Shown here one piece after another: positions 49,935-64,000 of a stretch of DNA of 64,000 nucleotides. The notes under the pieces were generated by a model, which saw only the letters and a program-made list of their open reading frames with translations, ran no database searches and was not told the DNA's origin. Both the position numbers and the translations under genes were made by a program. The first letter of the stretch is position 1; the number at the start of each line of letters is the position of its first letter. Source of the stretch: an uncultured Planctomycetota bacterium (GTDB lineage: Bacteria > Planctomycetota > PLA2 > JAEUHO01); the NCBI GenBank assembly GCA_963752285.1, contig CAVVXN010000001.1:768001-832000 (forward strand), in the 5' to 3' direction.

Positions 49935-50008
49935 GGGCCCGTAGCTCAATCGGTGAGAGCAGGGGACTCATAATCCCTTGGTTCCAGGTTCGAGTCCTGG
50001 CGGGCCCA
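49935..50008 (+). tRNA. tRNA with CAT anticodon, most likely tRNA-Ile2; CCA not encoded
   Basis: GGGCCCG/CGGGCCC-A acceptor stem, TAGCTCA..GGT..AGAGC D-arm, GGGA-CTCATAA-TCCC anticodon arm, GGTTCGAGTCC T-arm. Confidence 0.92.
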
Positions 50009-50158
50009 CTCCCCTCCAAGGGCCATTTCTTCGCCTCTGGCGCCCATCACGATCCGTAATCCACCCCCGACCGAGAGCCCCCGTTCGCGCAAGGAGCGGC
50101 GAGGAAGTGCGAGGTCGTGGCACCCGTCCCCCAAAGTTTCCCCCAAAGTGGCTCTCCG
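49960..50158 (+). repeat. 199-bp direct repeat, copy 1 (tRNA 3' part plus 150-bp arm; att site)
   Basis: Identical by eye to 62281-62479; contains tandem CCCCCAAAGT at 50128 and 50140. Confidence 0.92.
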
Positions 50159-50827
50159 TCGCGGGGCCCGCGCCATCAAGAGGTCCAGGCTAGGCGGGGT
50201 CTGGGAGCATCCGGAGGGTCAGATCGCCGGCGTGGCGACGGACGACCTCCAGCAGGCCGTTGCGGCAGCCCTCGGCTGCCCGCGCGAGGACATGTTCTTC
50301 GTGCAGCGTGACCCTCACGTACTGCGCTGATGGTGGGCCTTGAAGAGGACGCCGACGTGACGCGGGGCGGGACGGTGATCGGAGAGGCCAGGTACGGTGC
50401 GAACGAGGCACCTCCTGCCGACGAGGGGGAGCAGGTCCACACCGGGCCACCGACTCCAGGGCCGCACACGGTGCGAAACGTGGCGTACCCGGCCGCGGGG
50501 CTGCGCTGAGCCCCTGTGCGGGGCGCCACCGAGCGCCTGCGTTGCCATCCGCGGTAGGAGGCGCGTAGCATGCCGCAAGCACGTTGCGGACTGGCTCGGG
50601 GTGGAGCAGCCAGACCAGCCGCGCCGGGGAGCCAACATGCGTACAAGGGGAGCGATTCTCGGGGGGGCCACGCTTCTCGCGATCCTGGCGGCGGTGACCG
50701 CCAGCCGCGCGTGGGGCAGCGACGACGCGACCACGCCCGACCCGTCGGCACGAGTCGCAGACTGTGACCACGCCGGATCGACCGCTCTCACCCGAATGTA
50801 GGATCCCCGACGGAGAGGCGCTCCCGC

Positions 50828-51076
50828 ATGGCGAACATCCTCGCGGTCCCGGGTCCGAACTCGAGGTATCGGACTCCAGGGGCCGCTCCCGCCGGGTTCT
50901 TCTCGGGCTTCTGGCACGGGCTGATCTGCCCGTTCACCTTCCTGATCAGCCTCTTTGCCCCAGGCGTCCGGATCTACGAGACGAACAACTCCGGTCTCTG
51001 GTACGATTTCGGGTTCTTCCTGGGGATTGCCGCCACGTTCGGCTCCGGCGGCAGGAACGCTGCGCAGCTCCGCTGA
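50828..51076 (+). CDS. Small conserved membrane protein
   Basis: PAGFFSGFWHGLICPF..IYETNNSGLWYDFGFFLG; TAGGAT box and GGAGAGG upstream. Confidence 0.7.
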   Translation: MANILAVPGPNSRYRTPGAAPAGFFSGFWHGLICPFTFLISLFAPGVRIYETNNSGLWYDFGFFLGIAATFGSGGRNAAQLR

Positions 51077-51080
51077 TCGC

Positions 51081-52091
51081 CTACCGGGTGGGGGGCTGAC
51101 GAGTCCGTAGCGACGCGACGAACCTGGGGTCAAGGTCCAGTGCCTCTATGTCCAGCCGCTCTCCCAACACCTCCTTCTTACGGCCTGGCGGGAGGCCCTG
51201 GAAGGCACGAATGCTCTCGTCAGATGCGAACAGGGCGAGTGTCTCCGGCTGTGACAAGATGCGCCTGTATAGCCATCTCGCTAGCTCATGCGCCTGATGC
51301 ACACGACGCAGTGCCAGCGCCTCCGTAGGCTCAAACAGGTGCGGGGCTGCCGCTTTGAGGTCATTCATGTGTTCCGTCGCACTTCGAAGATCGTAGATGT
51401 CCGCCAAAGTTGTATGCGAGACGTCTGCTAGCGCCTCCACGCGGCTCTTGAACTGTGACTTCGTCTTGCCCTGCTCTGGCACGACTAGCGCTTCGACGGC
51501 ACGCACGGACTGGTGAAGACGATCCTCAGTGTGTCTGGCCTCAAGAGCCCTCTTCAGTGCCCGCAGTCCGCGCCTGAATCGATCGAAGCTGTCGAGTTCG
51601 TCGTTCAAAGTCTGAATCCCGGCGGCGGCCAAGTCGGCTTCGCGGAGAACCGCGTCGTCGACCGTGAGCCATGGCGTTCCCTGGAACCAGTAAAACTCCT
51701 GGAGGCTGCTGGTCTTGCGGACCTGGACTACTCCCTCGTGGTGCGAACCGCCGATGCGGACGCCAGGTTGCTCCAGATTCATGGATCCCTGCAAGAGCAG
51801 GCCCAGGACGACGCAGGTGCACCTGCCCTCGAGTGTGGAGAACTCCTCGTCCACGATGCCCAGTTTGTCGGACGGCCTTTGAGCGAGGATGTAGAGACGG
51901 CACTTCCTGAACCGATCTGCGTACAGACTCCCCAGTGCCTTCCGCATGTGGGCGTCGAGCTCGACGGGGGGAGACGGGAGCGCTAGGGTCTGAGAGCCCA
52001 GACGGACAGGTGCGACGACATCGCTCGCCGCGCCAACAAGGCCGCAACACACGAATTTGTGACCGGGCAGTATCAGTTGGGGCTCAGTCAT
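51081..52091 (-). CDS. HEPN-domain protein (ApeA-like), candidate defence RNase
   Basis: C-terminal helical domain with RAVEAL and IYDLRSATEH (R-x4-H). Confidence 0.65.
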   Translation of the reverse strand: MTEPQLILPGHKFVCCGLVGAASDVVAPVRLGSQTLALPSPPVELDAHMRKALGSLYADRFRKCRLYILAQRPSDKLGIVDEEFSTLEGRCTCVVLGLLLQGSMNLEQPGVRIGGSHHEGVVQVRKTSSLQEFYWFQGTPWLTVDDAVLREADLAAAGIQTLNDELDSFDRFRRGLRALKRALEARHTEDRLHQSVRAVEALVVPEQGKTKSQFKSRVEALADVSHTTLADIYDLRSATEHMNDLKAAAPHLFEPTEALALRRVHQAHELARWLYRRILSQPETLALFASDESIRAFQGLPPGRKKEVLGERLDIEALDLDPRFVASLRTRQPPTR

Positions 52092-52215
52092 GGCGCCATC
52101 TTGCGCGCACCCACGCTGCCAGGCGAGGCTCTTCCCTTCGCTCCCTCATCAGTGACGGCAGCGCCACTGGGCGGAGGCCCGAACGTCATGGGGGCGACAG
52201 TGCTCAGTGGTCGCC

Positions 52216-52719
52216 CTACCCTCCAACAGACTCGCGTCGCTCGCTGTTTGCCGCCGGCGCGGGACCCGAACCTGCCCCCACATCGATCCTCCCGACGGCC
52301 TCCCGCGCATCGTCCATCTGGAGCCTTACGTACACGTTCGCCGTGAGCGTCGGCGTCGAGTGCCGCATGAGCTTCTGGGCCTGGGCGAGGGAGACGCCGG
52401 CGCGCGCGAGGAGGGTGCCGTAGGTCGTACGGAGGGCGTGGAGGTCGATCACCCCGGCCGGCGTCTGGACGGGGATCCTCGCCGCCCCGAGGTCCTTCCG
52501 GAGCGTCACCGTGTTCGGGACCGCCCGGAAGACCTTGGCGCTCGGGAGCTGCTGGTCGCCCCGGAGCGTGGCGAGCGCGGCCACGGTCCCGGGCGGGAGC
52601 GGGAGCACGGCCTCGCGGCGGTTCTTGGCCTGGGACGCCCGGACGCGGACCGTCGCCACCTCCAGGTCCACGTCGGCCCAGGTGAGCGAGGCGAGCTCGG
52701 AGCGCCGCAGCCCCGTCCC
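52216..52719 (-). pseudogene. Tyrosine integrase C-terminal remnant truncated by IS
   Basis: TGLRRSEL, AKN, LHALRTT, MRHS, TANVY catalytic residues; homology stops at the IS boundary. Confidence 0.88.
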
Positions 52720-53729
52720 TGGTCCCGCAGAGGAGCATTCCCGGTACTGGATCTCGCCCGTGCAGCAGTTCGGTGACCGAGTAGAAGCCGAGGTTGGTCT
52801 TCGAGCCCTTCGGCGGGCCATGGACGAAGTTCAGCGCATCGGCGGCGAAGCTTGCGATCCTCGCGCTGGTGGCGCTCCTGGGCCCGCGTCTCTCCTACGA
52901 ACGGGTCCGGATCTTCCTGCCGGGGCTGGGCCGGCGGGAGGCGAGATCGTGGCTCCGGCGCTCTCGGCGGGACTGGGCGCGGGCGCGGGAACGGGGGCAG
53001 GCGTTGCTCCGGTGGCTCGCTCCCGGGACGGTGTGGGCGATGGACTTCAGCGAGGCGCCCACTCCGATCGAGGGGCGGTACCGCTACCTGCTCAGCGTGC
53101 GGGACCTGGCGAGCGGGATGCAACTGGTGGCGCTGCCGTGCCACGACACGACCGAGGCCACGGCGACGGCCGCGCTCGAGGCGGCGTTCCTTGCGCACGG
53201 CGCGCCGCTCGTGCTCAAGACGGACAACGGCTCGGCGTTCATCGCCGGGGCGTTCCGGGCGCTGCTCCTTGCCTACGGGGTGACCGCCCTCTACTCCCCG
53301 CCACGCTGGCCTCGCTACAATGGGGCCTGCGAGGCCGGGATCGGCGGGCTCAAGACCCGGGCCCACCACCTCTCGGCGTGGGCCGGGCGGCCCGGCGAGT
53401 GGACCCTAGAGGACCTGGAGCGTGCTCGATGCTACGGCAACGAGTTCGGACGGCCGTTCGGGCGAAGTCGGCCCGTGCCGGCGGGGGTCTGGGCGACGCG
53501 GCGCCCCCCGACGCCGGAGGCGTCAGACGCCTTTCGCGAGGCGCTCGCCCGGCACCGGGAGGCGCTGGCCGCGGTACGACATCCCGAGTCGGGGCGTTCC
53601 CGGCTCGCGCTCGACGAGCGCACGGCGATCACGCGCGCGCTCACCGAGCTGGGCTACCTGGAGTTCAAGACGAGGCGCGTTTCTCTACCCATTTCCCCGC
53701 CTTTGGCGGCAGGGATTCTCTGAGGACCA
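52720..53729 (+). mobile_element. IS3/IS481-like insertion sequence, probably internally deleted
   Basis: TG...CA ends with imperfect inverted repeats (TGGTCCCGCAGAG versus TGGTCCTCAGAG). Confidence 0.65.
52794..53723 (+). CDS. DDE (rve-type) transposase, N-terminus probably incomplete
   Basis: WAMDF, LKTDNGSAF, YSPPRWPRYNGACEAG. Confidence 0.85.
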   Translation: MVFEPFGGPWTKFSASAAKLAILALVALLGPRLSYERVRIFLPGLGRREARSWLRRSRRDWARARERGQALLRWLAPGTVWAMDFSEAPTPIEGRYRYLLSVRDLASGMQLVALPCHDTTEATATAALEAAFLAHGAPLVLKTDNGSAFIAGAFRALLLAYGVTALYSPPRWPRYNGACEAGIGGLKTRAHHLSAWAGRPGEWTLEDLERARCYGNEFGRPFGRSRPVPAGVWATRRPPTPEASDAFREALARHREALAAVRHPESGRSRLALDERTAITRALTELGYLEFKTRRVSLPISPPLAAGIL

Positions 53730-53852
53730 CACAAGAACCTGGAGCCGTGGCCACGGGTCATGACGGCTCTATGGGGCGAGCAAATGCGGTTGGATGAAGT
53801 GCGGTTGCTGCAGCCATAGTGCGATGAGCGCCGCCGAGCTGTACTTGTCTGG

Positions 53853-56132
53853 GTGTCCGCACGTTGCGGCAACGAGGAGGTCGGGAGGATCGAAGTGACT
53901 ACCTTCCCGTCCTGCAGGGGGCGTGTGACCGTAGCGCGGTCGCGTCTTGTCTTGGGAACACACGTCCTTCGGGTTGTTTGTCAGTGGGTGCTGCTGGCGG
54001 TGACCCTCTTTGCGTGTCGCGCCGGAAGCCGCGGGCCAGTCGACGTTTGCCCGAAGGAAATCGAGCGCGATGCATCAGTGAAGCGACTGTCCACCGCTGC
54101 CGCTGCGTCGGCGGCAGCCGGTGTGCCGCGTGGTGCGAGTGCCTCGGTCGTAATCACAGTGGTGGATGGTTCTGCCAGACCCATCGCTGGTGCGCGGGTG
54201 CGTATCTCCAGCGATCTCACGGTACTGACTGGCTGGGACGGTGTCGCGCATGTGCAACGAGCGCCGGTCGGGGAGTACAGAGCAGCCATCTGGTCCCAGG
54301 GACATCGCGCACAGGCTGTCCCCCTGGAGGTGATCCCGGGAAGATCGGTATCGGCGCGAGTGGTCCTGCGCGCGTGCCGTGGTCTACGCAGTGTGGTCCT
54401 CGATGCCGAATCAGCTCGGCCAGTGGCAGACGCGGAGTTGCGCCTGTATGACGACGGCGACTGGGGAGCACCGTGGCCGGAGAGCGTCCCGGCCCATGTC
54501 GGTCGCCCGACTTGGCAGGCCCGAAGCGATGGGCGCGGGGAGATCACCCTTCCATGCTCCTGGGGCGCTCTGGAGATCCGTGCGCGTGGCTACGCAACGA
54601 TCTGGAAGTTCTACGACGCCACGAAATCAAGCATGCGCCGCCGGTTCCCGGTGTACCTCCCCCAGTCAGGATGCGTGCGGGGTCACGTCGTCGCGGGACT
54701 GGAAAGCCGATGCAGCGTCGTGGCGACGCCGAGAGAACTCGCGCTACACGTCTATCCTGACGAGGGTTATTCTGACCCGTTCTTATGGAGAACCCCCGTC
54801 TTCAGGGATGCGCTTCGGGTGAGGACGGTGTCCGTCCAGCAGGGGGGTGGCTTCTTCATCGAAGGGGAGCCGATCGGGGAAGTCCTTGTCCTACGTGTCA
54901 TGTGCTCCGGCCATGAGCCCGGTACTGCGGTGGTCGTGCGCGCGGCCCTAGGAAAGCGGAGTCCCGACGTGTCGCTCCGGCCAGGTCCGCTCTTCCTGCA
55001 GGGTAGGCCGGATGGGGACCGAAACCGCGACGCGACGACGTCGGCCTTCGAAGTGGCTGGGCAGGTTGTCGACGAGGCCGGAAGGCCGGTGGCGGGGGCG
55101 GGTGTCTGGATCCACGGAAGGCGGGGCGCCGCGGCCCTGACGGACGCAGGAGGACACTTCGCAGGGATACGGGGCGCACTGGAGCCTCTGACTGAGATCG
55201 TTGCAGCGAAGGCCGGCTACAGCCGAGCTACGCGGGACCTGCGGACGTCCGGCAACGCCAGGGTGGTCTTGACCCTGGAGCGAGCCGCGCGACTCGTGGG
55301 AGAGGCCCGGATCCCGATGACCGTCACGGAACCCGGATCTCTCGGCCTCTCATGGCAGCTCGGCTGGGGTGAAGCCGTGGTGCCTTGGCCCGCTCACGCG
55401 CGAGGACGCTTGCGATTCGACATCAGCGCTCCGCCTGGGCACCTTGGCGATCTTCGCATTGAAGCGTGGCCGTTCGCCGCGGAAGTTCGGCAGGTAGAGA
55501 CCGTGCCCGGCCAGACCCTCGATCTCGGAACCGTGCAGCTCGCTCCCATTCCTCATGAGGTGATCTCGGGCACGGTCCGGAGGGAAGAGGGCGGTGCGCT
55601 ACCCGACGCTGAGGTCACGTTCAAGCGCGATGAAGAAGTCGGTACGGCCGCGCAGGCGACAACGGATGAGGCAGGGGCGTTTCAGTTCAACGTTCGAGGT
55701 CAAGTGCTGGGCGGCGAGTTGCGCGTGGTGCGGGCCGGTTACTGCAATGTGGTGAGGCACATTGTAGCTGGTCCCGGGCCCAAGCGAGTGGACATCGCAA
55801 TGGAGGAAGCGGGGACGATTGAAGGAAGGGTCCTCGGGGCCGAGGGGCACCCTGTCTTCTTGCTCCAAATCGAGGCTTGGAGTGCGGCCTCGAAGGAGAC
55901 CTGGGGTGCCCTCACCTACACGGATCGTGGTGGACGTTACTACCTTGAGCTGAAGCCGGGGCTCTGGTCGCTGCGCTGGGCTCTTCCGGGGCACCAGCAC
56001 GTGGGACGTGGAGATGAGAGGATCATCCGGGATCGGTTCCGAGTTGGGGCAGGAGAGCACCTGTCCCTTGTAACGTACCTCTCGGACTTGCCTCAAGTGG
56101 GAGTTCCGAAGCCGCGCGAGCGTTCCCGGTGA
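53853..56132 (+). CDS. Exported protein with repeated carboxypeptidase-regulatory-like beta-sandwich domains; start uncertain
   Basis: Repeated G.V.D..G.P(V/I)AGA.V and TD..G.F motifs; possible lipobox LFAC. Confidence 0.75.
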   Translation: MSARCGNEEVGRIEVTTFPSCRGRVTVARSRLVLGTHVLRVVCQWVLLAVTLFACRAGSRGPVDVCPKEIERDASVKRLSTAAAASAAAGVPRGASASVVITVVDGSARPIAGARVRISSDLTVLTGWDGVAHVQRAPVGEYRAAIWSQGHRAQAVPLEVIPGRSVSARVVLRACRGLRSVVLDAESARPVADAELRLYDDGDWGAPWPESVPAHVGRPTWQARSDGRGEITLPCSWGALEIRARGYATIWKFYDATKSSMRRRFPVYLPQSGCVRGHVVAGLESRCSVVATPRELALHVYPDEGYSDPFLWRTPVFRDALRVRTVSVQQGGGFFIEGEPIGEVLVLRVMCSGHEPGTAVVVRAALGKRSPDVSLRPGPLFLQGRPDGDRNRDATTSAFEVAGQVVDEAGRPVAGAGVWIHGRRGAAALTDAGGHFAGIRGALEPLTEIVAAKAGYSRATRDLRTSGNARVVLTLERAARLVGEARIPMTVTEPGSLGLSWQLGWGEAVVPWPAHARGRLRFDISAPPGHLGDLRIEAWPFAAEVRQVETVPGQTLDLGTVQLAPIPHEVISGTVRREEGGALPDAEVTFKRDEEVGTAAQATTDEAGAFQFNVRGQVLGGELRVVRAGYCNVVRHIVAGPGPKRVDIAMEEAGTIEGRVLGAEGHPVFLLQIEAWSAASKETWGALTYTDRGGRYYLELKPGLWSLRWALPGHQHVGRGDERIIRDRFRVGAGEHLSLVTYLSDLPQVGVPKPRERSR

Positions 56133-56310
56133 ATCGGCTCTGCGCCGACTCATTCGCGCTCCGCCGATGGGATGGGCGCGCGTCCCGCAGCCCCTTGACC
56201 GTGTGCTTCCGGCGATGGTGCGTGAGTCCGGGCCGCGGCGGCTGCGCGGGGCGCCGGGCGGGGCTCGGCGGGCGAGGGTGAGACCGGCGCCCGGCGCCGA
56301 CTTCCCGTCT

Positions 56311-56356
56311 TCGGAGGTGCGTGTCAATCCCTTCTGGAGCTTCCTGCCCAGAAGTC
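56311..56356 (+). repeat. 46-bp cassette-boundary motif, copy 1
   Basis: TCGGAGGTGCGTGTCAATCCCTTCTGGAGCTTCCTGCCCAGAAGTC; 38/46 identical to copy 3. Confidence 0.8.
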
Positions 56357-56540
56357 GGCACCGGGAGGACGCGGCCGTATCCGCCGACGAGGCCCGGCCC
56401 GGCGCGGAACCCGGTGCCTGACTTCCCGCAGACGGCGCCGACCAGGAGGGCGGAAAGTCGTCCTGCCGGGGCCGCGCGAGCAACGGGGAGGGCGCTTGGA
56501 GCCGGGTCTGATCGAGCTGGCGGTCACGCGTGACACGACA

Positions 56541-56616
56541 ATGGCCTGCCGCGGTAGGATCCTGGCCATGGCCGAGCCCGGGGAAGGTCCGCGGTCGGGG
56601 CGCGTGGCGGTGCCGC
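56541..56616 (+). repeat. Rhs cassette leader, copy 1 (TAGGAT box plus ATG)
   Basis: 68/76 identical to 59461-59536. Confidence 0.85.
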
Positions 56617-56653
56617 CTGCGCGCGACGCTGGGACCAAGCGTGCGCGACGCGG

Positions 56654-57865
56654 GTGCTGGGCCGACGGGTGGGGAAGGCCGTGACGGGTGGCGTGACCGA
56701 GCGGTACGTCTACGCGGGCGTCGAGACGATCGCGACCTACGACGGCTCGAACACCTGGAAGCAGGACTTCGTCTTCGGCCAGGGGATCGACAACGTGTTG
56801 ATGCTCGAGCAGGCGGACGTGCTCGACTTCGACTCGGACCAGAACACGACCGAGACGACAAGGTCCTTCTACCACAAGAACGCGCTCGGCTCCGTGATGG
56901 CGATCACGGACATGAACGAGGCGACGGCGGTGTCGTACCGGTACGATCCGTACGGCGAGGTAACCGTCACGCGCGGATGGCAGACGCAGTCGGCGGACCC
57001 GCTGCAACAGCACTGGACGTACCCGGGGCGGTTCTTCGACGAGGAGACGGGGCTCTACTACTATCGGGCGAGGTGCTTTGGCCCGGAGAAGGGGAGGTTC
57101 CTGGAGAGGGATCCGCTGGGCTATCAGGTTGGTCCGCACTTGTACAACTATGCAGGCGATCGACCTATCGGCATTCGCGATCCACTCGGCCTGGACGGAC
57201 TGGCGGACCCCGACCGGGCAGGCCCTGAGCCTGGTAGCGCGAATGACCCCGGTGGGTTTGATGAGAATCGCGGAGGCGGGCAGTTTGATCCGTTTACGTC
57301 CAGCGCAGGCACTCTGGAGTTCAGACTCGATGTCTACTTCTGGATTCCACGTGGCCACGGCCCCGCGGGAGGACTCTACGTGCAGTCGCGCATCTTGGTG
57401 TTTGCGACCGGGTGCAAGACGCAGCCCGGGACGTCTTTGCCATGCCCCAATCCACGCCTGACCGTGGAGTACTTCAGGTTGGATGGATATCGGACGAAGA
57501 TCCCGGACACCCATAGCTCCACGTTCATGACTGGATACTGTGCGGGCACAGTGCACGTTAGTTTCACTCTTACCTTGGGCGCGTTGATTGTGCGGGACCC
57601 CAACACCGGCGACTGGACGTCCGGCGCAGCATACTACCGGGCAGCGGCGTACGGCTACGTTCCACCCGCCACCCACACGACGTTCGGATTGGATAATGTA
57701 CACTTCACTCCCCTGAGTCGGCCTCGACGGTGGTATTACCAATTCAATTTCGATCAATGCACAGGCTCACCATCCAGGATCCGGTGCAGCTGGGACAGGA
57801 TCACTCGCCCGAGGCTCCGAGAGGATCCGGTTCCGAAGCCGCCCGTCATAACGCCTAGTGACTAG
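56654..57865 (+). CDS. Orphan Rhs core + C-terminal domain 1 (partly degenerate)
   Basis: LGRRV, HKNALGSV, YDPYG, ETGLYYYRAR, GRFLERDPLG, PIGIRDPLGL, then a beta/Cys-rich tip. Confidence 0.9.
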   Translation: MLGRRVGKAVTGGVTERYVYAGVETIATYDGSNTWKQDFVFGQGIDNVLMLEQADVLDFDSDQNTTETTRSFYHKNALGSVMAITDMNEATAVSYRYDPYGEVTVTRGWQTQSADPLQQHWTYPGRFFDEETGLYYYRARCFGPEKGRFLERDPLGYQVGPHLYNYAGDRPIGIRDPLGLDGLADPDRAGPEPGSANDPGGFDENRGGGQFDPFTSSAGTLEFRLDVYFWIPRGHGPAGGLYVQSRILVFATGCKTQPGTSLPCPNPRLTVEYFRLDGYRTKIPDTHSSTFMTGYCAGTVHVSFTLTLGALIVRDPNTGDWTSGAAYYRAAAYGYVPPATHTTFGLDNVHFTPLSRPRRWYYQFNFDQCTGSPSRIRCSWDRITRPRLREDPVPKPPVITPSD

Positions 57866-59012
57866 GGAGTACGCTGTGAACGCCGGTCTGTTCCGAGGTT
57901 CGCTAGTGGCCGCCGCCTTCGTTGTGTCCCTTACCCTAGCCTCTTCTCGTGCCGAGGATCGACCTACCCGAGACGACGTGCGACATGTGTTCCGGGCATT
58001 CGCACCCGAGTACTACCGCCGCTTCTACGCCTGGGCCAATGCACAGACATTTGTGCCGGGAGAGAACCTAGGAAAGGAGGAGCGTGACGCACGATATGCG
58101 TCACTGCGCCGGAGGAGCGAGTTGTGGGCTGAGGCTTTCCAGGAGGTGTTGGTGCTGGACAGCGATCAGACCTTCGTGCTCGAGTTTCGCGACCTTGTGT
58201 CCATGCCTGACAAGGTGCCCGTGATGTCCGTGATCCCGGAAGGGGCATGGACCAAGTGGAGCGGTCGGTGGGCACGGACTGGAACGACGTTGCGACTGAC
58301 GGTGTGGCGAATCAATGGATTACCTGTGGCTTCGCCAGTTGACTGGGTGGCTGTATGGATTCGGAGAGAGGTCGTCATTCCGAACCTGCGACAGGGCTAT
58401 GCACCAGCGGTCATGCACGAGGTTCTTGGCGGGGATGTGGGTACGAACCAGGTCTTGGACAGGAATGAGGATGCAAGCCAGCGGTGTGTGTCTATCTCGT
58501 CGACGGAGAGTCGGCTCGGCAGGTTGGCAAAGAGCATTACGGGCCTGCTGCGATTCGCGCTTGGTGAGAAGCATCGCAAGGCGTCTCAGAGGAGCGCGTT
58601 TGCAGACAACCCTCACCATTGGCTGCAAGTGCTGCGGGGGCCGAACGAGGCGCAGTGGACGGAGGCTGCCGTGGAGCTCGTCCGTCTCCACTCCACTGAG
58701 GCTGCTACGACCTTCATGAAGATCCTCGATGAGCGGAGAGGTGAAGGCGAGGTTCGGGTAGTTGCGGCGAACGCGCTAGGGGAGTGGAGAGTCGTTGACA
58801 GTGTGCCCACACTGATACGATCTCTCCAGGACGAAGACCGCGTTGTGCGGCTTTCAAGTATGTACGCTCTGGAGAGCGTAACCGGTCACCACATCGAAGT
58901 CGAAGGAAGTGATCGGAGTGAGGAAGAGGTTGCGAGTTGGCTGCAATCGCAGTGGTCGGCCTGGTGGGCAGAGAACGAGGCATCTGTGCGTGCTTCTCAT
59001 GCCGGGAGCTGA
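57858..59012 (+). CDS. Exported HEAT-repeat protein, candidate partner/immunity of Rhs-CT1
   Basis: Overlaps the Rhs stop; signal peptide; VRVVAANALGE and DEDRVVRLSSMYALESVTG; W..WW end. Confidence 0.75.
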   Translation: MTREYAVNAGLFRGSLVAAAFVVSLTLASSRAEDRPTRDDVRHVFRAFAPEYYRRFYAWANAQTFVPGENLGKEERDARYASLRRRSELWAEAFQEVLVLDSDQTFVLEFRDLVSMPDKVPVMSVIPEGAWTKWSGRWARTGTTLRLTVWRINGLPVASPVDWVAVWIRREVVIPNLRQGYAPAVMHEVLGGDVGTNQVLDRNEDASQRCVSISSTESRLGRLAKSITGLLRFALGEKHRKASQRSAFADNPHHWLQVLRGPNEAQWTEAAVELVRLHSTEAATTFMKILDERRGEGEVRVVAANALGEWRVVDSVPTLIRSLQDEDRVVRLSSMYALESVTGHHIEVEGSDRSEEEVASWLQSQWSAWWAENEASVRASHAGS

Positions 59013-59070
59013 GGCACCAGAACCTGTTCCGTCCCCGATCGGTGTTGACTCCTGACGGCCTTGGGAATCC

Positions 59071-59116
59071 TCAGAGGTATGTATCAGTCCCTTCTGGATA
59101 TTTCTGCCGAGTACTC
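59071..59116 (+). repeat. 46-bp cassette-boundary motif, copy 2
   Basis: TCAGAGGTATGTATCAGTCCCTTCTGGATATTTCTGCCGAGTACTC; 42/46 identical to copy 3. Confidence 0.85.
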
Positions 59117-59220
59117 TAATATCGGGGTCGCGGATCGTCCCGCCGCAATGACGGCCGTGGGCGTGTGTGAGGGTCGGGGCGGCGCCCCCCAGTCGGGCCG
59201 ACCGGGCATAGGACCCGCCG

Positions 59221-59325
59221 TGTCGGGTTCCTCCCCCTCGATGTCGTCAGGCGGAGCACACCCCGCATTGCGCAGCTCGGCTTACGGCGAGGCGGGCGGC
59301 CCGGGCTTCGCGGCGCCGGGTGGCG
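59221..59325 (+). repeat. Inter-cassette linker repeat, copy 1
   Basis: Shares GTCGTCAGGCG..GCACACCCCGCA..GCGCAGCTCGG..AGGCGGGCGGC..GCGCCGGGTGGCG with 61901-62003. Confidence 0.8.
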
Positions 59326-59460
59326 AGGGGCGCCCGGACGTTGACGCCCGTCCCGAAGTAGACTTGGTCCGGCGTCCGGCCCTGGATGGCCTGTGATTAG
59401 CCCGCCGTCAACACCGGGCCAACTGTCCCCATAGGGCTTCGGACGCCGCCTTTCGCACGC

Positions 59461-59536
59461 ATGGCCCGTTGCGGTAGGATCCTGGCCATGGCCGAGCCCG
59501 GGGCAGGTCCGCGGTCGGGACGCACGGCGGCGCCGC
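59461..59536 (+). repeat. Rhs cassette leader, copy 2
   Basis: TAGGAT at 59475-59480 and ATG at 59488, in frame with Rhs2. Confidence 0.85.
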
Positions 59537-61047
59537 GCGCCCGCAGGACAGGCTCGGCCCGCGGCAGGGCGGATGCGCCGGGCCGGCGGGTCGAGAAGGC
59601 CGTGTCGGGCGGCGCGACGACGCGCTACGTGCTCGACGCACAGCAGGTCGTCGAAGAGTACGACGGGCAGGACGTCTGGCAGGCGCGGTACGTCTACGAG
59701 GACGGGATCGACCGCCCGCGCGTCATGGACCGGGCGGACCAGGCGGACGTGAACGGAAACCAGAACACGACCGAGGTGCTCCGGTTCACGTACCACCAGC
59801 AGGCGCTGGGGTCGGTGACGGAGGTTTCGGAGCCCGGCGGGAGCGTCGTCGAGTGGGTGACCTACGACGCTTACGGCAAGCCCACGACTCTGGACCAGCA
59901 GGGAAACGCGGTCGCACAGAGCCCGGTCGGGAACCCGTACCTGTACACCGGGCGCGAGTATGACGCCGAGACGAAGACCTACTACTTCCGAGCGCGTGCG
60001 TACGACCCGGAGACTGGGCGGTTCCTGCAGAGAGATCCCGCTGGGTACGTCGGGGGGCTGTCCCTCCACCAGTACGTGGGGTCGGGCCCAGCTTCGTTCA
60101 CCGACCCGTCGGGGCTCATGCCGGAACCGAAGGACAAGGAGAACAAGCCAGTCGAGTGGCTTCGGTGGGCGGGCCAGCAACTCGTGGCTGCTCAGGAGAG
60201 GGCAGACGCTGCGTGGCGAGCCTATGACGCCGCTCTGGATGCGGCCTATGCGGCAGGGGGAGTGGTCAACGGTCTCCAGAAGCAGATCGACGATCTCAAG
60301 GAGAAGATCAAGGAGATGGAGGAGAAGTGCCTCGACACGACGCAGGAGGAGAAGGATCTTGCCAAGTTGGAGGAGCGCCTCGCGGACGCGAAGGCGGCGC
60401 AGGACGAGGCGTGGCATAAGGTCGACGAGGCTATCGCCGCCGCCGACACGGCTCAGGACGCTCTTGACGCCGCCGAAAACGAATTCCACAAGGCAGCGCA
60501 AAACATGTGGACTAAGAGCGGTGGGACCGGAAGTGTGCCACGCGGGGATCTCGGGGCTCTTAGCAGGGAGGACTTCAAGAGGTTGGCCAAACTCGATTTG
60601 ATCGCGTTCGGCGCGCGCGGGCAGGGCGGCGCCGATGACTGGTCTGCGCTGGCGATCGGCTACGGCCCGACCCGCTTCAGGGAACTAGGGATTGATCCAG
60701 ACACTGGACAACCTCGTATGGGTAGTGGGAACTCCAGGGGCATGTGGATTGATGTCAACGATACGTTGGACCCGGCGTACGGGGCGCGAAGTGGGATCGG
60801 TGAACAGATGCTAGGAGAGGTGTGGTTACATGAGGCTCGGCACTACTCGGAGGGAAACGACGAGCACTTTGTCTCATGGCCGGATGGAGCCATGCCGGAG
60901 ACAACCGACGCGAATCGATGGCAAGGCTACGAGGATCATTCGCCGGATCCGGCACGAGGAGTTGAGCATGGTGGGCGGAGTGGCTGGCTCCCGTATGACC
61001 AGCAGACGTCGCGTAACGCGCAAGTCGCCGGACGAAGGTACAGGTGA
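59488..61047 (+). CDS. Orphan Rhs core + coiled coil + HExxH metallopeptidase-like C-terminal domain
   Basis: GRRVEK, YDAYG, GNPYLYTGREYD, YDPETGRFLQRDP, PASFTDPSGL; VWLHEARH. Confidence 0.9.
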   Translation: MAEPGAGPRSGRTAAPRARRTGSARGRADAPGRRVEKAVSGGATTRYVLDAQQVVEEYDGQDVWQARYVYEDGIDRPRVMDRADQADVNGNQNTTEVLRFTYHQQALGSVTEVSEPGGSVVEWVTYDAYGKPTTLDQQGNAVAQSPVGNPYLYTGREYDAETKTYYFRARAYDPETGRFLQRDPAGYVGGLSLHQYVGSGPASFTDPSGLMPEPKDKENKPVEWLRWAGQQLVAAQERADAAWRAYDAALDAAYAAGGVVNGLQKQIDDLKEKIKEMEEKCLDTTQEEKDLAKLEERLADAKAAQDEAWHKVDEAIAAADTAQDALDAAENEFHKAAQNMWTKSGGTGSVPRGDLGALSREDFKRLAKLDLIAFGARGQGGADDWSALAIGYGPTRFRELGIDPDTGQPRMGSGNSRGMWIDVNDTLDPAYGARSGIGEQMLGEVWLHEARHYSEGNDEHFVSWPDGAMPETTDANRWQGYEDHSPDPARGVEHGGRSGWLPYDQQTSRNAQVAGRRYR

Positions 61048-61122
61048 ACACCGGCGCCTGGGAGTAGCCACTCTCGTCCCTTCCCGAAGCGGGAAGTGGT
61101 GCCCGAGCAGTCTGTGGGGACT

Positions 61123-61725
61123 ATGATGCCGGTCAAGGGCTGGAAGTGGGGCCTCGCCGTCGTACTCGTCGGTGCTTGCGTCCTCGGGGTCATTGTCTGG
61201 AAGATGACCGCGTGGAGCGGCGGGCCTGAAGAAGAGGACGGAAGTGCCAAGTGGATTGACATCGGGGAGGGGGTTATGCTCGTGCGCATACACCTCCGTG
61301 TGACGGACGCCGAGGGAATTCCCGTGGCTGGGGCGCGTGTCGTGTCAGACTTGAGCCGCACGGCGCTGGAGAGTGAGGAGGCTATCAATGACGTGCGGCG
61401 AATGGTCGATTCCGCTCTCGCAGAGGGTTTCAGGGGCGAGGAACAGGTCGCGATTGCCACCACGGATCAGAGTGGGGTGGCTGTGTTGGAGTACACCTCT
61501 GGGCGCGGAGGCGAGATCGCTTGGATCCCAGCGGTCCAGCGTGGGGAATTCCCCTTCGCGTGGTGGGTGCGCGTGGACGCGCCGACGTGCGGGACCTTGA
61601 TTCGGCCCCTGAATGAACCGAGGAACATCCGCTTCGACCTGCATCCCGGTCCGGTCGGACGCGGACGCTTTGGCGAGATCAAACGGGTTGGCGAGGCGGA
61701 TTTCGAGATCCGGTGTGAGAAGTAG
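61123..61725 (+). CDS. Membrane-anchored candidate partner/immunity protein of Rhs-CT2
   Basis: N-terminal TM; VTDAEGIPVAGARV and TTDQSGVA beta-sandwich motifs. Confidence 0.7.
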   Translation: MMPVKGWKWGLAVVLVGACVLGVIVWKMTAWSGGPEEEDGSAKWIDIGEGVMLVRIHLRVTDAEGIPVAGARVVSDLSRTALESEEAINDVRRMVDSALAEGFRGEEQVAIATTDQSGVAVLEYTSGRGGEIAWIPAVQRGEFPFAWWVRVDAPTCGTLIRPLNEPRNIRFDLHPGPVGRGRFGEIKRVGEADFEIRCEK

Positions 61726-61751
61726 AGGCCGTGGGTGAAGGCTGAGATGCA

Positions 61752-61797
61752 TCCGAGGTGCGTATCAGTCCCTTCTGGAGATTTCTGCCGAGTACTC
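61752..61797 (+). repeat. 46-bp cassette-boundary motif, copy 3
   Basis: TCCGAGGTGCGTATCAGTCCCTTCTGGAGATTTCTGCCGAGTACTC. Confidence 0.85.
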
Positions 61798-61900
61798 GAA
61801 CAGCGGGACGGCGGGTTCCCCCTGCCGCGAAGGGGCAGCGGGGGGGCGTGAGCGGGTTGCTGGCACGCACGTCCGTGCCGATCGTGCATGAGGGTCGAGG

Positions 61901-62003
61901 TGTCGGGGATCCTCCTCGGCGTCGTCAGGCGCTGCACACCCCGCAGCGCGCAGCTCGGTTGGCGGCCAGGCGGGCGGCACGGGCTTGGCAGCGCCGGGTG
62001 GCG
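61901..62003 (+). repeat. Inter-cassette linker repeat, copy 2
   Basis: Similar to 59221-59325, at about the same distance from the boundary motif. Confidence 0.8.
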
Positions 62004-62280
62004 CGGCGGTCGGAGTCGCGGGCGGCGGCGTGGCCGACCGTCCCCCGACGTGGCGCGTGTTCCCCGGGGGCGTGGTGTGGTCCGCGGACCGTGCGCCGGG
62101 CGCGACACGGCGCGACGTGGGCGCCTGGAGGCGGCCGACGAGGCGCCCGGTCGCCAGGCCCCCCGGCGGGGCGCGCGCCCTGTTCGGGCGGTCACCGTAC
62201 GATCGGCCCCCTGACCTACCCAAAGTGCCCCTCGCCGTCGCCCACGGAGGGCCATTTCATGCGGGTCTTATTGCGTTTCC

Positions 62281-62479
62281 CAGGGGACTCATAATCCCTT
62301 GGTTCCAGGTTCGAGTCCTGGCGGGCCCACTCCCCTCCAAGGGCCATTTCTTCGCCTCTGGCGCCCATCACGATCCGTAATCCACCCCCGACCGAGAGCC
62401 CCCGTTCGCGCAAGGAGCGGCGAGGAAGTGCGAGGTCGTGGCACCCGTCCCCCAAAGTTTCCCCCAAAGTGGCTCTCCG
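62281..62479 (+). repeat. 199-bp direct repeat, copy 2 (tRNA 3' fragment 62281-62329 plus arm; attP-like)
   Basis: Identical to 49960-50158; an extra CCCAAAGT box upstream at 62219-62226. Confidence 0.92.
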
Positions 62480-62676
62480 CGTTCGGTCCCCAGGAGCGCG
62501 CGCGTAGTCCACGACGGGCGTCTCCCTCCCCGGCGGTGAGGGCCCCGGTTCCGACCCCCGAGATCGCGTCTGCGCGCGGTTAGGGCAATGCAGTCATCGT
62601 AGTCCGTCAGAGTGTATGCACGGTGGACGCTGCGCGCTACCGTGACATTCATCCAACTGGCGAAAGGAGGTGACCA

Positions 62677-63735
62677 ATGAGCAGATGGATCCTCACGCTC
62701 TCTTTGGCAGTTTTTCTGTGGCCAAGGGAGGCCCTAGCACGAGATGAGGAACAGCACGTCAAGGAGTTGCAGGAGAGAATCGCCGTGCTGGAGAAAGAGA
62801 ACCACGTCCTGAGGCAGAAAGTCCTCTGGCATGAGTTGCTAGCAGCGGCCCGGTTGCCCAGGTCGGCTACTCGTGTGGATGTACTCCGATTAGGCCCCGG
62901 TTCCCGTCAGGCAAATGAACGGAGCGAGCACCTCAAGGGGATCCGGCTTCCCGATCGCCCCTCCAAGAGCGCTGTAAGGGAGTACGTCGGGAGGATCCTC
63001 GAGGCGGCACAGGATCACCGGCAGGTTTTCGAGTCGGTCGATCCCGAGATTGCTCTACTGGAAGCGGTTGGCCCCGCCAATGTAGACATATTGATCGAAC
63101 CGCTCGTATACCTCCCTCACATAGGTCCCTCGTATTACCTCATCGAGGCACTCGATACACTAGTCGGGGCAGAGCACAAGGAGTTGATTCTCGATAACCT
63201 CGCCGCTGCCGATGAGCTCGTGGCGATTGTCACTGATCGTGGATGGGTGAGAGACGCGGCGCCGATATTGCTGGGGGTTCTCGCAAAGAGGTCTGCGTTG
63301 CTGTCGGTGGAGTGGGTAGAGGCGGCCGCCAAAGTTGCCGGCCCGGACCGTTACGACGACTTGAAGTTCCAACTCGTCAACAACATGTCTCCCCTTCGCA
63401 TCTGGAAGGCGATCCGCTCCTTGCCTGGAATTGGCCCACTGGACAAGTTGATCGCTGAGAGGTGGCAACGAACGCCGAGGGTCGAGGACTCCTGGTCCTG
63501 GCAGCGGCTCGCTGCAGTCGCTGCCTACTGCGGTCACCTAGATGCGTTGGCGGCCGTGGTGCGGCACCTAGAGTCGAATGATGGGGAATTGTGGGGGACA
63601 TTCCAAACCCTGACTGGCTATGATGGTCAACCTGGCCCCCCGGAGCAGGCTGAGAAGGCAAGGAGGTGGTTCGCGGAACATGAGGGCAGCCTTGTCTTTG
63701 ATCGTTCGCAGGGGCGCTATCGAATCGTCAAGTGA
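62677..63735 (+). CDS. Exported hypothetical protein (signal peptide, short coiled coil, helical domain)
   Basis: Strong SD AAGGAGGTGA; MSRWILTLSLAVFLWPREALA; KELQERIAVLEKEN. Confidence 0.75.
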   Translation: MSRWILTLSLAVFLWPREALARDEEQHVKELQERIAVLEKENHVLRQKVLWHELLAAARLPRSATRVDVLRLGPGSRQANERSEHLKGIRLPDRPSKSAVREYVGRILEAAQDHRQVFESVDPEIALLEAVGPANVDILIEPLVYLPHIGPSYYLIEALDTLVGAEHKELILDNLAAADELVAIVTDRGWVRDAAPILLGVLAKRSALLSVEWVEAAAKVAGPDRYDDLKFQLVNNMSPLRIWKAIRSLPGIGPLDKLIAERWQRTPRVEDSWSWQRLAAVAAYCGHLDALAAVVRHLESNDGELWGTFQTLTGYDGQPGPPEQAEKARRWFAEHEGSLVFDRSQGRYRIVK

Positions 63736-63772
63736 GACGCACGAGCTCAGCGCGGCCACCATCTGAGCCGAG

Positions 63773-63844
63773 GAGCGGGATGCGTGAATCGCGCACGTCC
63801 GGATGTGTGGAAGGCCCGGGAGGCAACTCCCGGGCCTACCCGAC
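63773..63844 (+). ncRNA. Group II intron 3' fragment (domains V and VI only)
   Basis: DV GAGCGGGATGCG-TGAAT-CGCGCACGTCCGGA with AGC triad; DVI AGGCCCGGGAG-GCAA-CTCCCGGGCCT followed by bulged A and CCCGAC end. Confidence 0.85.
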
Positions 63845-64000
63845 TCCGTACGGTACGGTCACGATCACGCGGAGGGGGCAGACACAGTCGTCGGATCCCC
63901 TGGGGCAGCACTGGACGTACACGGGGCGGTTCTTCGACGTGGAAAGCGATCTGTACTACTTCCGTGCGCGCTACTGCCACAGCGGCCTCGGGCGCTTCAT
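63845..64000 (+). pseudogene. Third orphan Rhs core fragment, startless, runs off the window
   Basis: From 63846: PYGTVTITRRGQTQSSDPLGQHWTYTGRFFDVESDLYYFRARYCHSGLGRF; homologous to Rhs1 from 56947. Confidence 0.85.

Follow-up and report, generated by a model that had tools for sequence, protein, structure and literature searches.

The window analysed here, a 64,000-nt stretch from an uncultured Planctomycetota bacterium (GenBank assembly GCA_963752285.1, contig CAVVXN010000001.1, positions 768,001 to 832,000; C1:768001-832000 in our contig labels), contains a tRNA-Met gene whose 3′ part recurs 12.3 kb downstream within a perfect 199-bp direct repeat. We interpret the two repeat copies as probable attachment (att) sites of a family of integrative islands that would target tRNA-Met specifically and belong to one genus of uncultured Planctomycetota. 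The reading that we favour, giving it a chance slightly above even, is accretion, in which the 12.3-kb unit between the copies was added next to an older island already resident at the same tRNA gene. The assembly (G000) is a metagenome-assembled genome (MAG) of 4.64 Mb in five contigs with a completeness of 89%, and the window is internal to a contig of 925 kb. We compared it with a genome of the same genus (G001), a further relative (G009) and several contigs that carry L labels (L027, L036, L041, L042 and L052). Positions without a contig prefix are counted from the first base of the window.

The repeat copies lie at 49960-50158 and 62281-62479, both on the plus strand, with a start-to-start spacing of 12,321, and a repeat search confirmed the claim of the original prediction that all 199 positions are identical. 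A 20-mer scan of the whole assembly detected two copies, both in the window. Each copy consists of tRNA positions 26-75 and of 149 nt past the tRNA 3′ end, which we refer to as X; the share of the tRNA, predicted to be 49 bp, comes to the 3′ 49-50 nt when defined by ARAGORN. The tRNA-Met(CAT) gene (49935-50009, plus strand) is the sole tRNA that ARAGORN found in the window and matches Rfam RF00005 at 49935-50008 with 74.4 bits. Its acceptor end is G1-C72 and therefore not that of an initiator, so that this CAT tRNA is an elongator Met or an Ile2 species. The tRNA position at which copy 1 (here designated attL) starts is also where the homologous blocks of G001 and L041 start. Thus, the island has an intact tRNA gene at one end and a direct repeat of the 3′ portion of this gene at the opposite end, the arrangement that marks a tRNA-targeting island, and the block of identity begins at the anticodon stem/loop (tRNA position 26), as is seen for elements that use the anticodon loop as their sublocation.

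The right end of X contains tandem CCCCCAAAGT boxes with a 12-nt period, at 50128-50149 in copy 1 (plus strand, identified by motif scan and footprint alignment) and at 62449-62470 in copy 2. CCCCCAAAGT occurs four times in the G000 genome, each time in a repeat copy (50128, 50140, 62449 and 62461), and the reversed-motif control gave 0 occurrences. The shorter CCCAAAGT has 14 occurrences when both strands are counted, of which five fall in this att region, compared with 24 for its reversed control. The motif scan also bore out two predicted details: the identity of the repeat stops just after the tandem boxes, 9 nt past the second one, and a further CCCAAAGT, at 62219, lies upstream of copy 2 only. 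This box (62219-62226) is part of a left (P) arm of copy 2 (62153-62280, plus strand). Over 62214-62265 the left arm matches G001 at 44 of 52 positions, and it is not present in L041. A tRNA-like match at 62264-62329, composed of the last 17 nt of the left arm and the tRNA half (Rfam tRNA model, 28.7 bits against a threshold of 29 bits), is a product of the junction between the two.

Conservation within the block is uneven. The last 41 nt of X (62439-62479), which include the boxes, are identical to G001 at 38/41 and to L041 at 40/41 positions, while the middle of X matches them at 57/108 (53%) and 46/108 (43%) positions, respectively. The tRNA part of the block is identical in G001 (50/50) and matches L041 at only 40/50 positions; the boxed edge of X is thus kept better than the adjoining tRNA sequence between G000 and L041. 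As judged from these alignments, X is under constraint and not junk. We read the boxes as functional elements of an att arm, because they are kept in relatives while the surrounding extension diverges and because they are nearly unique in the genome, and we suggest that CCCAAAGT boxes may be arm-type binding sites for recombination proteins. Other functions of X were considered and discarded. Rfam searches at E values up to 1 returned no family besides the tRNA, the near-threshold pseudo-tRNA and one chance antisense match (RF04354, 26.8 bits against a threshold of 65.7), and X folds no better than its shuffled versions (z = 0.31); an RNA function was therefore rejected. Nor is X the coding start of a gene: the long open reading frames (ORFs) across it are GC-driven, and the downstream gene in G001 starts ~90 bp past the block.

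The double box is rare. Among 40 genomes of the order, and likewise among 401 genomes sampled from the phylum, two have it, both times G000 and G001 only, with 0 control hits. Scans of metagenome and viral loci added two metagenome contigs (L036 and L042) on which an intact 408-aa integrase has the double box in its final codons, 43 bp from a tRNA-Lys gene; in 6 of the 9 metagenome loci and in all 4 viral loci the hits were simple 12-mer arrays or unrelated coding repeats and were rejected. On G000 contig C5, a single box lies 113 bp from a tRNA-Asn gene, behind an integrase at 1098-1099 kb with apparent frameshifts. In this region (C5:1098400-1099702, L052 4400-5702) the frameshifted integrase is followed by the CCCAAAGT box and then by tRNA-Asn(GTT) on the opposite strand, and it represents either a decayed island or long-read indel errors.

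In lambda-type attP sites, arm-type integrase sites are arranged as short direct-repeat boxes to the left and right of the core, and phage HP1, with an att identity of 182 bp that is due to downstream tRNA genes, provides a precedent for long identity blocks. The site described here is similar in that short direct-repeat boxes, kept in relatives, flank the core on both sides and in that the identity block runs from the anticodon region past the tRNA 3′ end. It differs from lambda in that the right-arm boxes, which are putative arm sites recognised from their sequence, fall inside the duplicated block, and from HP1 in that downstream tRNA genes are absent.

The genome of G001 contains five blocks homologous to the 199-bp repeat, each ~235 bp long, ~70% identical and with the same start position in the tRNA. 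One is the full-tRNA copy on contig C14; the four non-tRNA copies are C14b, 17 kb downstream of it on the same contig, one on C7, and two on C2 (C2a and C2b) that are 6 kb apart. A left arm of 72-172 bp is common to all four non-tRNA copies and is recognisable before G000 copy 2. On the other side, four copies remain alike over 450-686 bp from the core, that is 215-450 bp past the block, and only C2b diverges at the end of X. Three of the five G001 blocks (C14b, C7 and C2a) therefore combine an arm-core-arm anatomy with a common right flank, as the members of a tandem array would, and copy 2 of G000 is, like them, an internal att site with both element arms. The original prediction had taken copy 2 for a complete arm-core-arm site. 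Its structure, a conserved left arm, a core and a boxed right part, agrees with this, and we regard copy 2 as attP-like on structural grounds; the doubt that attaches to the claim is that X may belong to the native target, as discussed below.

In G001, the contig ends of C14 and C2 share an overlap of 2.35 kb in reverse-complement orientation (99.9% identity). One continuous array from tRNA-Met, with the order tRNA, 17-kb unit, att, unit, att, 6-kb unit, att, is therefore conceivable in that genome; the C7 copy has no placement in it. The overlapping repeat itself (C14:389260-391608, C2:939794-942140) carries a 292-aa tyrosine recombinase, which is present in four identical-scoring copies in G001 and has one homolog in G000 at C1:8118-8603. 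A third version of X was found on the 1.1-kb metagenome contig L041, which begins exactly at the same tRNA position. Directly past its att block, at 260-1000, L041 encodes a RelE/Gp49-like ORF, apparently frameshifted, and an XRE-type helix-turn-helix ORF.

A degenerate copy of the left arm on another G000 contig bears on the point of exchange. C3:4815-4956, just past a 1066-aa Rhs gene, is 79% identical to 62153-62293; past the point within the anticodon loop where the homology ends come a hairpin and the gene for an unrelated exported protein. An attR formed at a secondary site would be expected to have this appearance. The loss of homology within the anticodon loop would place the exchange there, in the usual sublocation.

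Only a remnant of a tyrosine integrase was identified near the att sites (52216-52719, minus strand; PF00589, E 4e-16, profile positions 33-170 of 172). In a tblastn search with the G001 homolog, it corresponds to residues 228-378 of 385, the last ~150 residues, and no trace of the first ~227 residues was found anywhere in 50-56 kb. Thus, the local integrase is broken, as had been predicted. An insertion sequence (IS) fragment with an rve (DDE) transposase ORF (52785-53732, ORF 52785-53723, plus strand) adjoins the truncation. A second piece of this IS, 427 bp long and 98.4% identical, is located outside the window at 66785-67211, and the G000 genome holds only partial copies of it. The closest full-length homolog of the remnant (385 aa, 69% identity) is encoded on G001 C9, 3.3 kb from tRNA-Leu(CAA), and the best G000 paralog shows 44% identity; no close intact integrase was thus found in G000. 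PF00589 had no listed match in the G001 C14 17-kb unit or on C7, and on C2 the stretch from the copies to the contig end holds a single candidate (C2:934 kb), whose reading frame is broken ahead of the C-terminus.

The island has a GC content of 0.60-0.70, compared with 0.72-0.77 in the flanks. The left flank of the tRNA is syntenic with G001 and G009, and the right flank is not; the atypical composition together with absence from relatives is characteristic of a tRNA island. Beyond copy 2, the GC content stays at 0.61-0.68 up to ~67 kb. No synteny with G001 or G009 was detected there, genes with homologs in relatives resume at ~70.6 kb in non-syntenic order, and a search for the empty site found a right flank common to none of the relatives. 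The first gene past copy 2 (62677-63735, plus strand) encodes 352 aa with no family match in Pfam or PHROGs. It is followed by a third orphan Rhs C-terminal fragment (63732-64000 within the window, plus strand, running on to 64841), which is 56% identical to the first fragment of the island over 97 aa, and a second CarboxypepD_reg protein is also present. The prediction that both units carry Rhs fragments is therefore correct, with C-terminal fragments on each side of copy 2. The DNA past copy 2 looks like an older decayed unit: we read it as an older resident island with X as its right arm because it is low in GC, absent from relatives and endowed with cargo of the same kinds as well as with the same IS, and because X carries an element-type motif.

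These observations can be combined into the following scenario. The attP of an element, consisting of the left arm, the tRNA 3′ half and the boxed right arm X, would have recombined with the tRNA gene through a tyrosine integrase. A crossover in the anticodon loop would have produced copy 1 as attL and copy 2 as a second site. With this crossover point, the tRNA half and X in copy 2 would be the target's own sequence, and the unit would have entered a site composed of tRNA, X and the DNA from 62480 onward. A copy 2 with both element arms would then imply a target that was already trailed by X and island DNA; if the flank is an older island with X as its right arm, copy 2 would be a hybrid that unites both arms, as accretion produces. 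The older resident island would extend from 62480 to ~70 kb and would since have lost its far end, possibly through the IS with the fragment at 66.8-67.2 kb. This truncated IS lies where the GC content normalises and is plausibly the scar of the deletion that removed the far att site. The unit is now non-autonomous: its attL and attR-like sites look intact, but it has no recombinase of its own, and it could move only with an integrase supplied in trans or be lost via homologous recombination, as perfect 199-bp repeats allow RecA-dependent loss of the DNA between them. It is a fossil of the type of a cis-mobilizable element (CIME), unless the 11% of the genome that is missing from the assembly encodes a compatible integrase or another element brings one in. 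Of the prediction of an excisable 12,321-bp module mobilised in trans, the broken integrase and the arm-core-arm anatomy are borne out; the tandem array that this prediction also included is weakened by the results that follow, as is its mobilisation by the lack of a close intact integrase in G000.

Several observations weigh against accretion. Further att copies and a final core-only attR, which a tandem array would lead one to expect, were found neither within 38 kb downstream (blastn-short) nor elsewhere in G000 with a genome-wide profile of arm, core and X, which picked up only the degenerate copy on C3 in addition. With two copies only, G000 does not have an array in the sense of at least three direct att copies delimiting at least two units. 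The att blocks are 100% identical, but the cargo that both units have in common is alike to a degree of only 56% (protein) to 77% (DNA). The orientation of the boxes relative to the tRNA is opposite at tRNA-Lys (L036 and L042) and tRNA-Asn compared with tRNA-Met, and Pfam searches of the full-length related integrases on L042 and L027 returned SAM-like and catalytic domains only, with no arm-binding domain. No CCCAAAGT was found within 20 kb of the G001 C9 integrase, which stands near a tRNA-Leu gene, and the remnant may therefore not be the cognate enzyme. The MAG, moreover, is only 89% complete. Finally, the last copy in G001 also bears X, with unrelated DNA next to it and no core-only copy within 24 kb beyond, and X may therefore be part of the native target.

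This last point is the basis of the alternative that survives best, although we consider it somewhat unlikely: the target was tRNA-Met together with X, and the element captured both. Copy 2 would then be a plain attR, a tandem array would never have existed here, and the DNA beyond copy 2 would be host DNA or an unrelated older acquisition. Such a long native attB agrees with there being only two copies in G000 and with an X end that is equally sharp and in the same place in G000, G001 and L041, as an inherited capture junction would be. It is harder to reconcile with the box region being kept better than the tRNA between G000 and L041, and with the fact that the motif turns up again in the left arm borne by the element and at further junctions between an integrase gene and a tRNA, which points to an element function and not to a host spacer. 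In addition, other genera of the family match the tRNA only and not X, and the flank past copy 2 is low in GC and non-syntenic and shares its kinds of cargo and its IS with the 12.3-kb unit. Partial copies of the tRNA-Met gene were also seen in other genera, a few kb from the full gene (G016:C9, G033:C137, G002:C62, G027 and G029); these comprise its 5′ 40-62 nt, which suggests that the elements there duplicate the 5′ half of the tRNA rather than the 3′ half.

The sequence past X differs between copy 1 and copy 2 of G000 and between the last copy and the others in G001, and in L041 it is a toxin-antitoxin-like pair; we count this variation in favour of accretion. A different role for the edge of X is suggested by the place where the divergence starts. 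In three independent comparisons, with three unrelated cargos, the divergence starts within a few bases of ...AAAGTGGCTCTC, and the most conserved 41 nt are located exactly at this edge. The tRNA half and X might form a self-regenerating docking site through which the lineage would collect Rhs toxin/immunity modules at a single tRNA gene and exchange them, with the 41-nt boxed edge as the junction between platform and cargo; we think this rather unlikely. A related reading is in our view quite unlikely. In it, the right end of X is itself the docking or recombination point, and every new module arrives with its own left arm, core and X at its right end and so regenerates the target, for a serial pile-up of toxin modules in the manner of a cassette platform. 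The boxes, being direct repeats, do not resemble the inverted core-type sites found on either side of a tyrosine-recombinase crossover, the C3 copy stops matching in the anticodon loop and not at X, four G001 copies stay alike for 215-450 bp past X, and no recombinase is linked to the edge. A misjoined or duplicated repeat, conceivable in an 89% complete MAG of five contigs, is very improbable given that the window lies inside a 925-kb contig, that the same architecture occurs independently in G001 and L041, and that the right edge of copy 1 is spanned, together with adjoining island sequence, by a public contig (X1, matching 50077-50324 with 1 mismatch) from a run that possibly represents the source sample.

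Evidence of movement was sought in public sequencing data. Seven runs contained at most 0.20 of the sampled words, and the four that were examined provided short Logan contigs only. No public contig contained the joint of a circle (62280-50159) or of an empty site (49959-62480), and none covered a repeat copy with its two flanks, the pieces being too short to bridge the 199-bp repeat.

The cargo of the unit consists largely of Rhs-related cassettes. The ORFs at 50.2-52.1 kb have no family assignment except a small ORF at 50768-51076 (plus strand), which matches the phage family of unknown function phrog_30702 in PHROGs (E 2e-13) and has a coding-like GC content at third codon positions (GC3 0.83); no excisionase or regulator was matched in this interval by PHROGs or Pfam. 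Beyond the integrase remnant and the IS fragment, domain searches identified a 759-aa protein with four CarboxypepD_reg domains (53853-56132, plus strand) as cargo. The first orphan Rhs C-terminal fragment (56654-57865, plus strand), recognised by alignment and blastp, comprises the end of the Rhs core (...RDPLGY...DPLGL) and a variable tail. It is followed by a HEAT-repeat protein (57858-59012, plus strand; domain search), a candidate immunity gene by position only. The second fragment (59461-61047, plus strand) shows 68-70% translated identity to three Rhs-linked stretches of G001, and the ORF past it (61096-61725, plus strand; ORF list and domain search) is likewise a candidate immunity gene by position only.

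Three junction repeats, composed of repeat families D3-D6, separate these genes. J1 (56311-56624, plus strand) and J2 (59062-59544) precede the two Rhs C-terminal cassettes, and J3 (61743-62006) is succeeded by the copy 2 left arm. They are 74-87% identical to each other and each lies directly past the stop codon of the preceding gene, and they may mark how cassettes get added or swapped. The cassette ORFs begin in the end of the Rhs core, ...YYYRARxYDPxxGRFLxRDPxGY...DPxGL, and continue into a variable tail. Residues D176, P177 and G179 and flanking core residues are invariant in 6 of 6 aligned sequences, as expected of orphan tips. None of the 59 RHS_repeat (PF05593) matches of the genome falls within C1:817-838 kb, and there is no full-length rhs gene at the locus. 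The Rhs ORFs of the island are orphan C-terminal toxin tips accompanied by probable immunity genes. In enterobacteria, orphan Rhs toxin/immunity cassettes are found downstream of rhs genes. The cassettes described here resemble them in starting in the core end, in the DPxGL boundary, in the variable tail and in the small gene that comes next; unlike them, they are carried by a tRNA-integrated island with neither a full-length rhs gene nor RHS_repeat.

Two further regions of G000 are recorded here. Two tRNA-Arg(CCT) genes on C5 (2151869-2151945 and 2189813-2189892) are 38 kb apart with GGGCCATTTC motifs near both, and a tyrosine integrase (C5:2190690-2191154) lies just past the second; the region is probably another island. 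Contigs C3 (1-10248) and C2 (1-5000) both open with Rhs genes whose repeat matches score identically but are oppositely oriented, and Rhs repeats probably broke the assembly at these points.

The closest parallel to the unit is found in the ICESt1-related elements of Streptococcus thermophilus, for which tandem accretion and CIMEs have been described (PMC5704250). As in that description, a decayed island without its own recombinase has kept its flanking att sites, the target gene is shared with a neighbouring unit, both element arms are present at an internal att site, and mobilisation is proposed to occur via an integrase from elsewhere. Compared with the ICESt1-type accretion outlined there, G000 has two att copies and no functional partner element, and the unit, which is known from sequence alone, has a Planctomycetota host, Rhs toxin tips as cargo and a 199-bp block that holds the presumed arm sites (PMC5704250). 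A second parallel is provided by the ssrA islands of Dehalococcoides, which are described as serial, located downstream of one small-RNA gene and each bounded by a repeat of the 3′ end of this gene; some units without integration genes are proposed to be cis-mobilizable, and a conserved motif adjoins the repeat (PMC3146451). The units in series, the 3′-end repeat, the integration-deficient units and the motif beside the repeat are shared features. The reported Dehalococcoides system has a 20-bp repeat, a serine recombinase and a transfer-messenger RNA target, whereas the island presented here has a 199-bp repeat, a tyrosine recombinase remnant and tRNA-Met as its target (PMC3146451).

The arrangement is thus ordinary in kind, as the stacking of islands at a tRNA gene and decayed non-autonomous units are familiar, and the general picture of island accretion is unchanged by it; what is new is the conserved three-part att module and its association with Rhs-tip cargo. 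The finding defines this module, composed of a left arm, a tRNA half and a 41-nt boxed right edge, for an undescribed family of tRNA-Met islands in uncultured soil Planctomycetota, and the conserved boxes offer concrete, testable candidates for recombinase arm sites. It also indicates that the inter-bacterial weaponry of Planctomycetota, in the form of polymorphic Rhs toxin tips, can travel on site-specific elements that stack at one tRNA gene.

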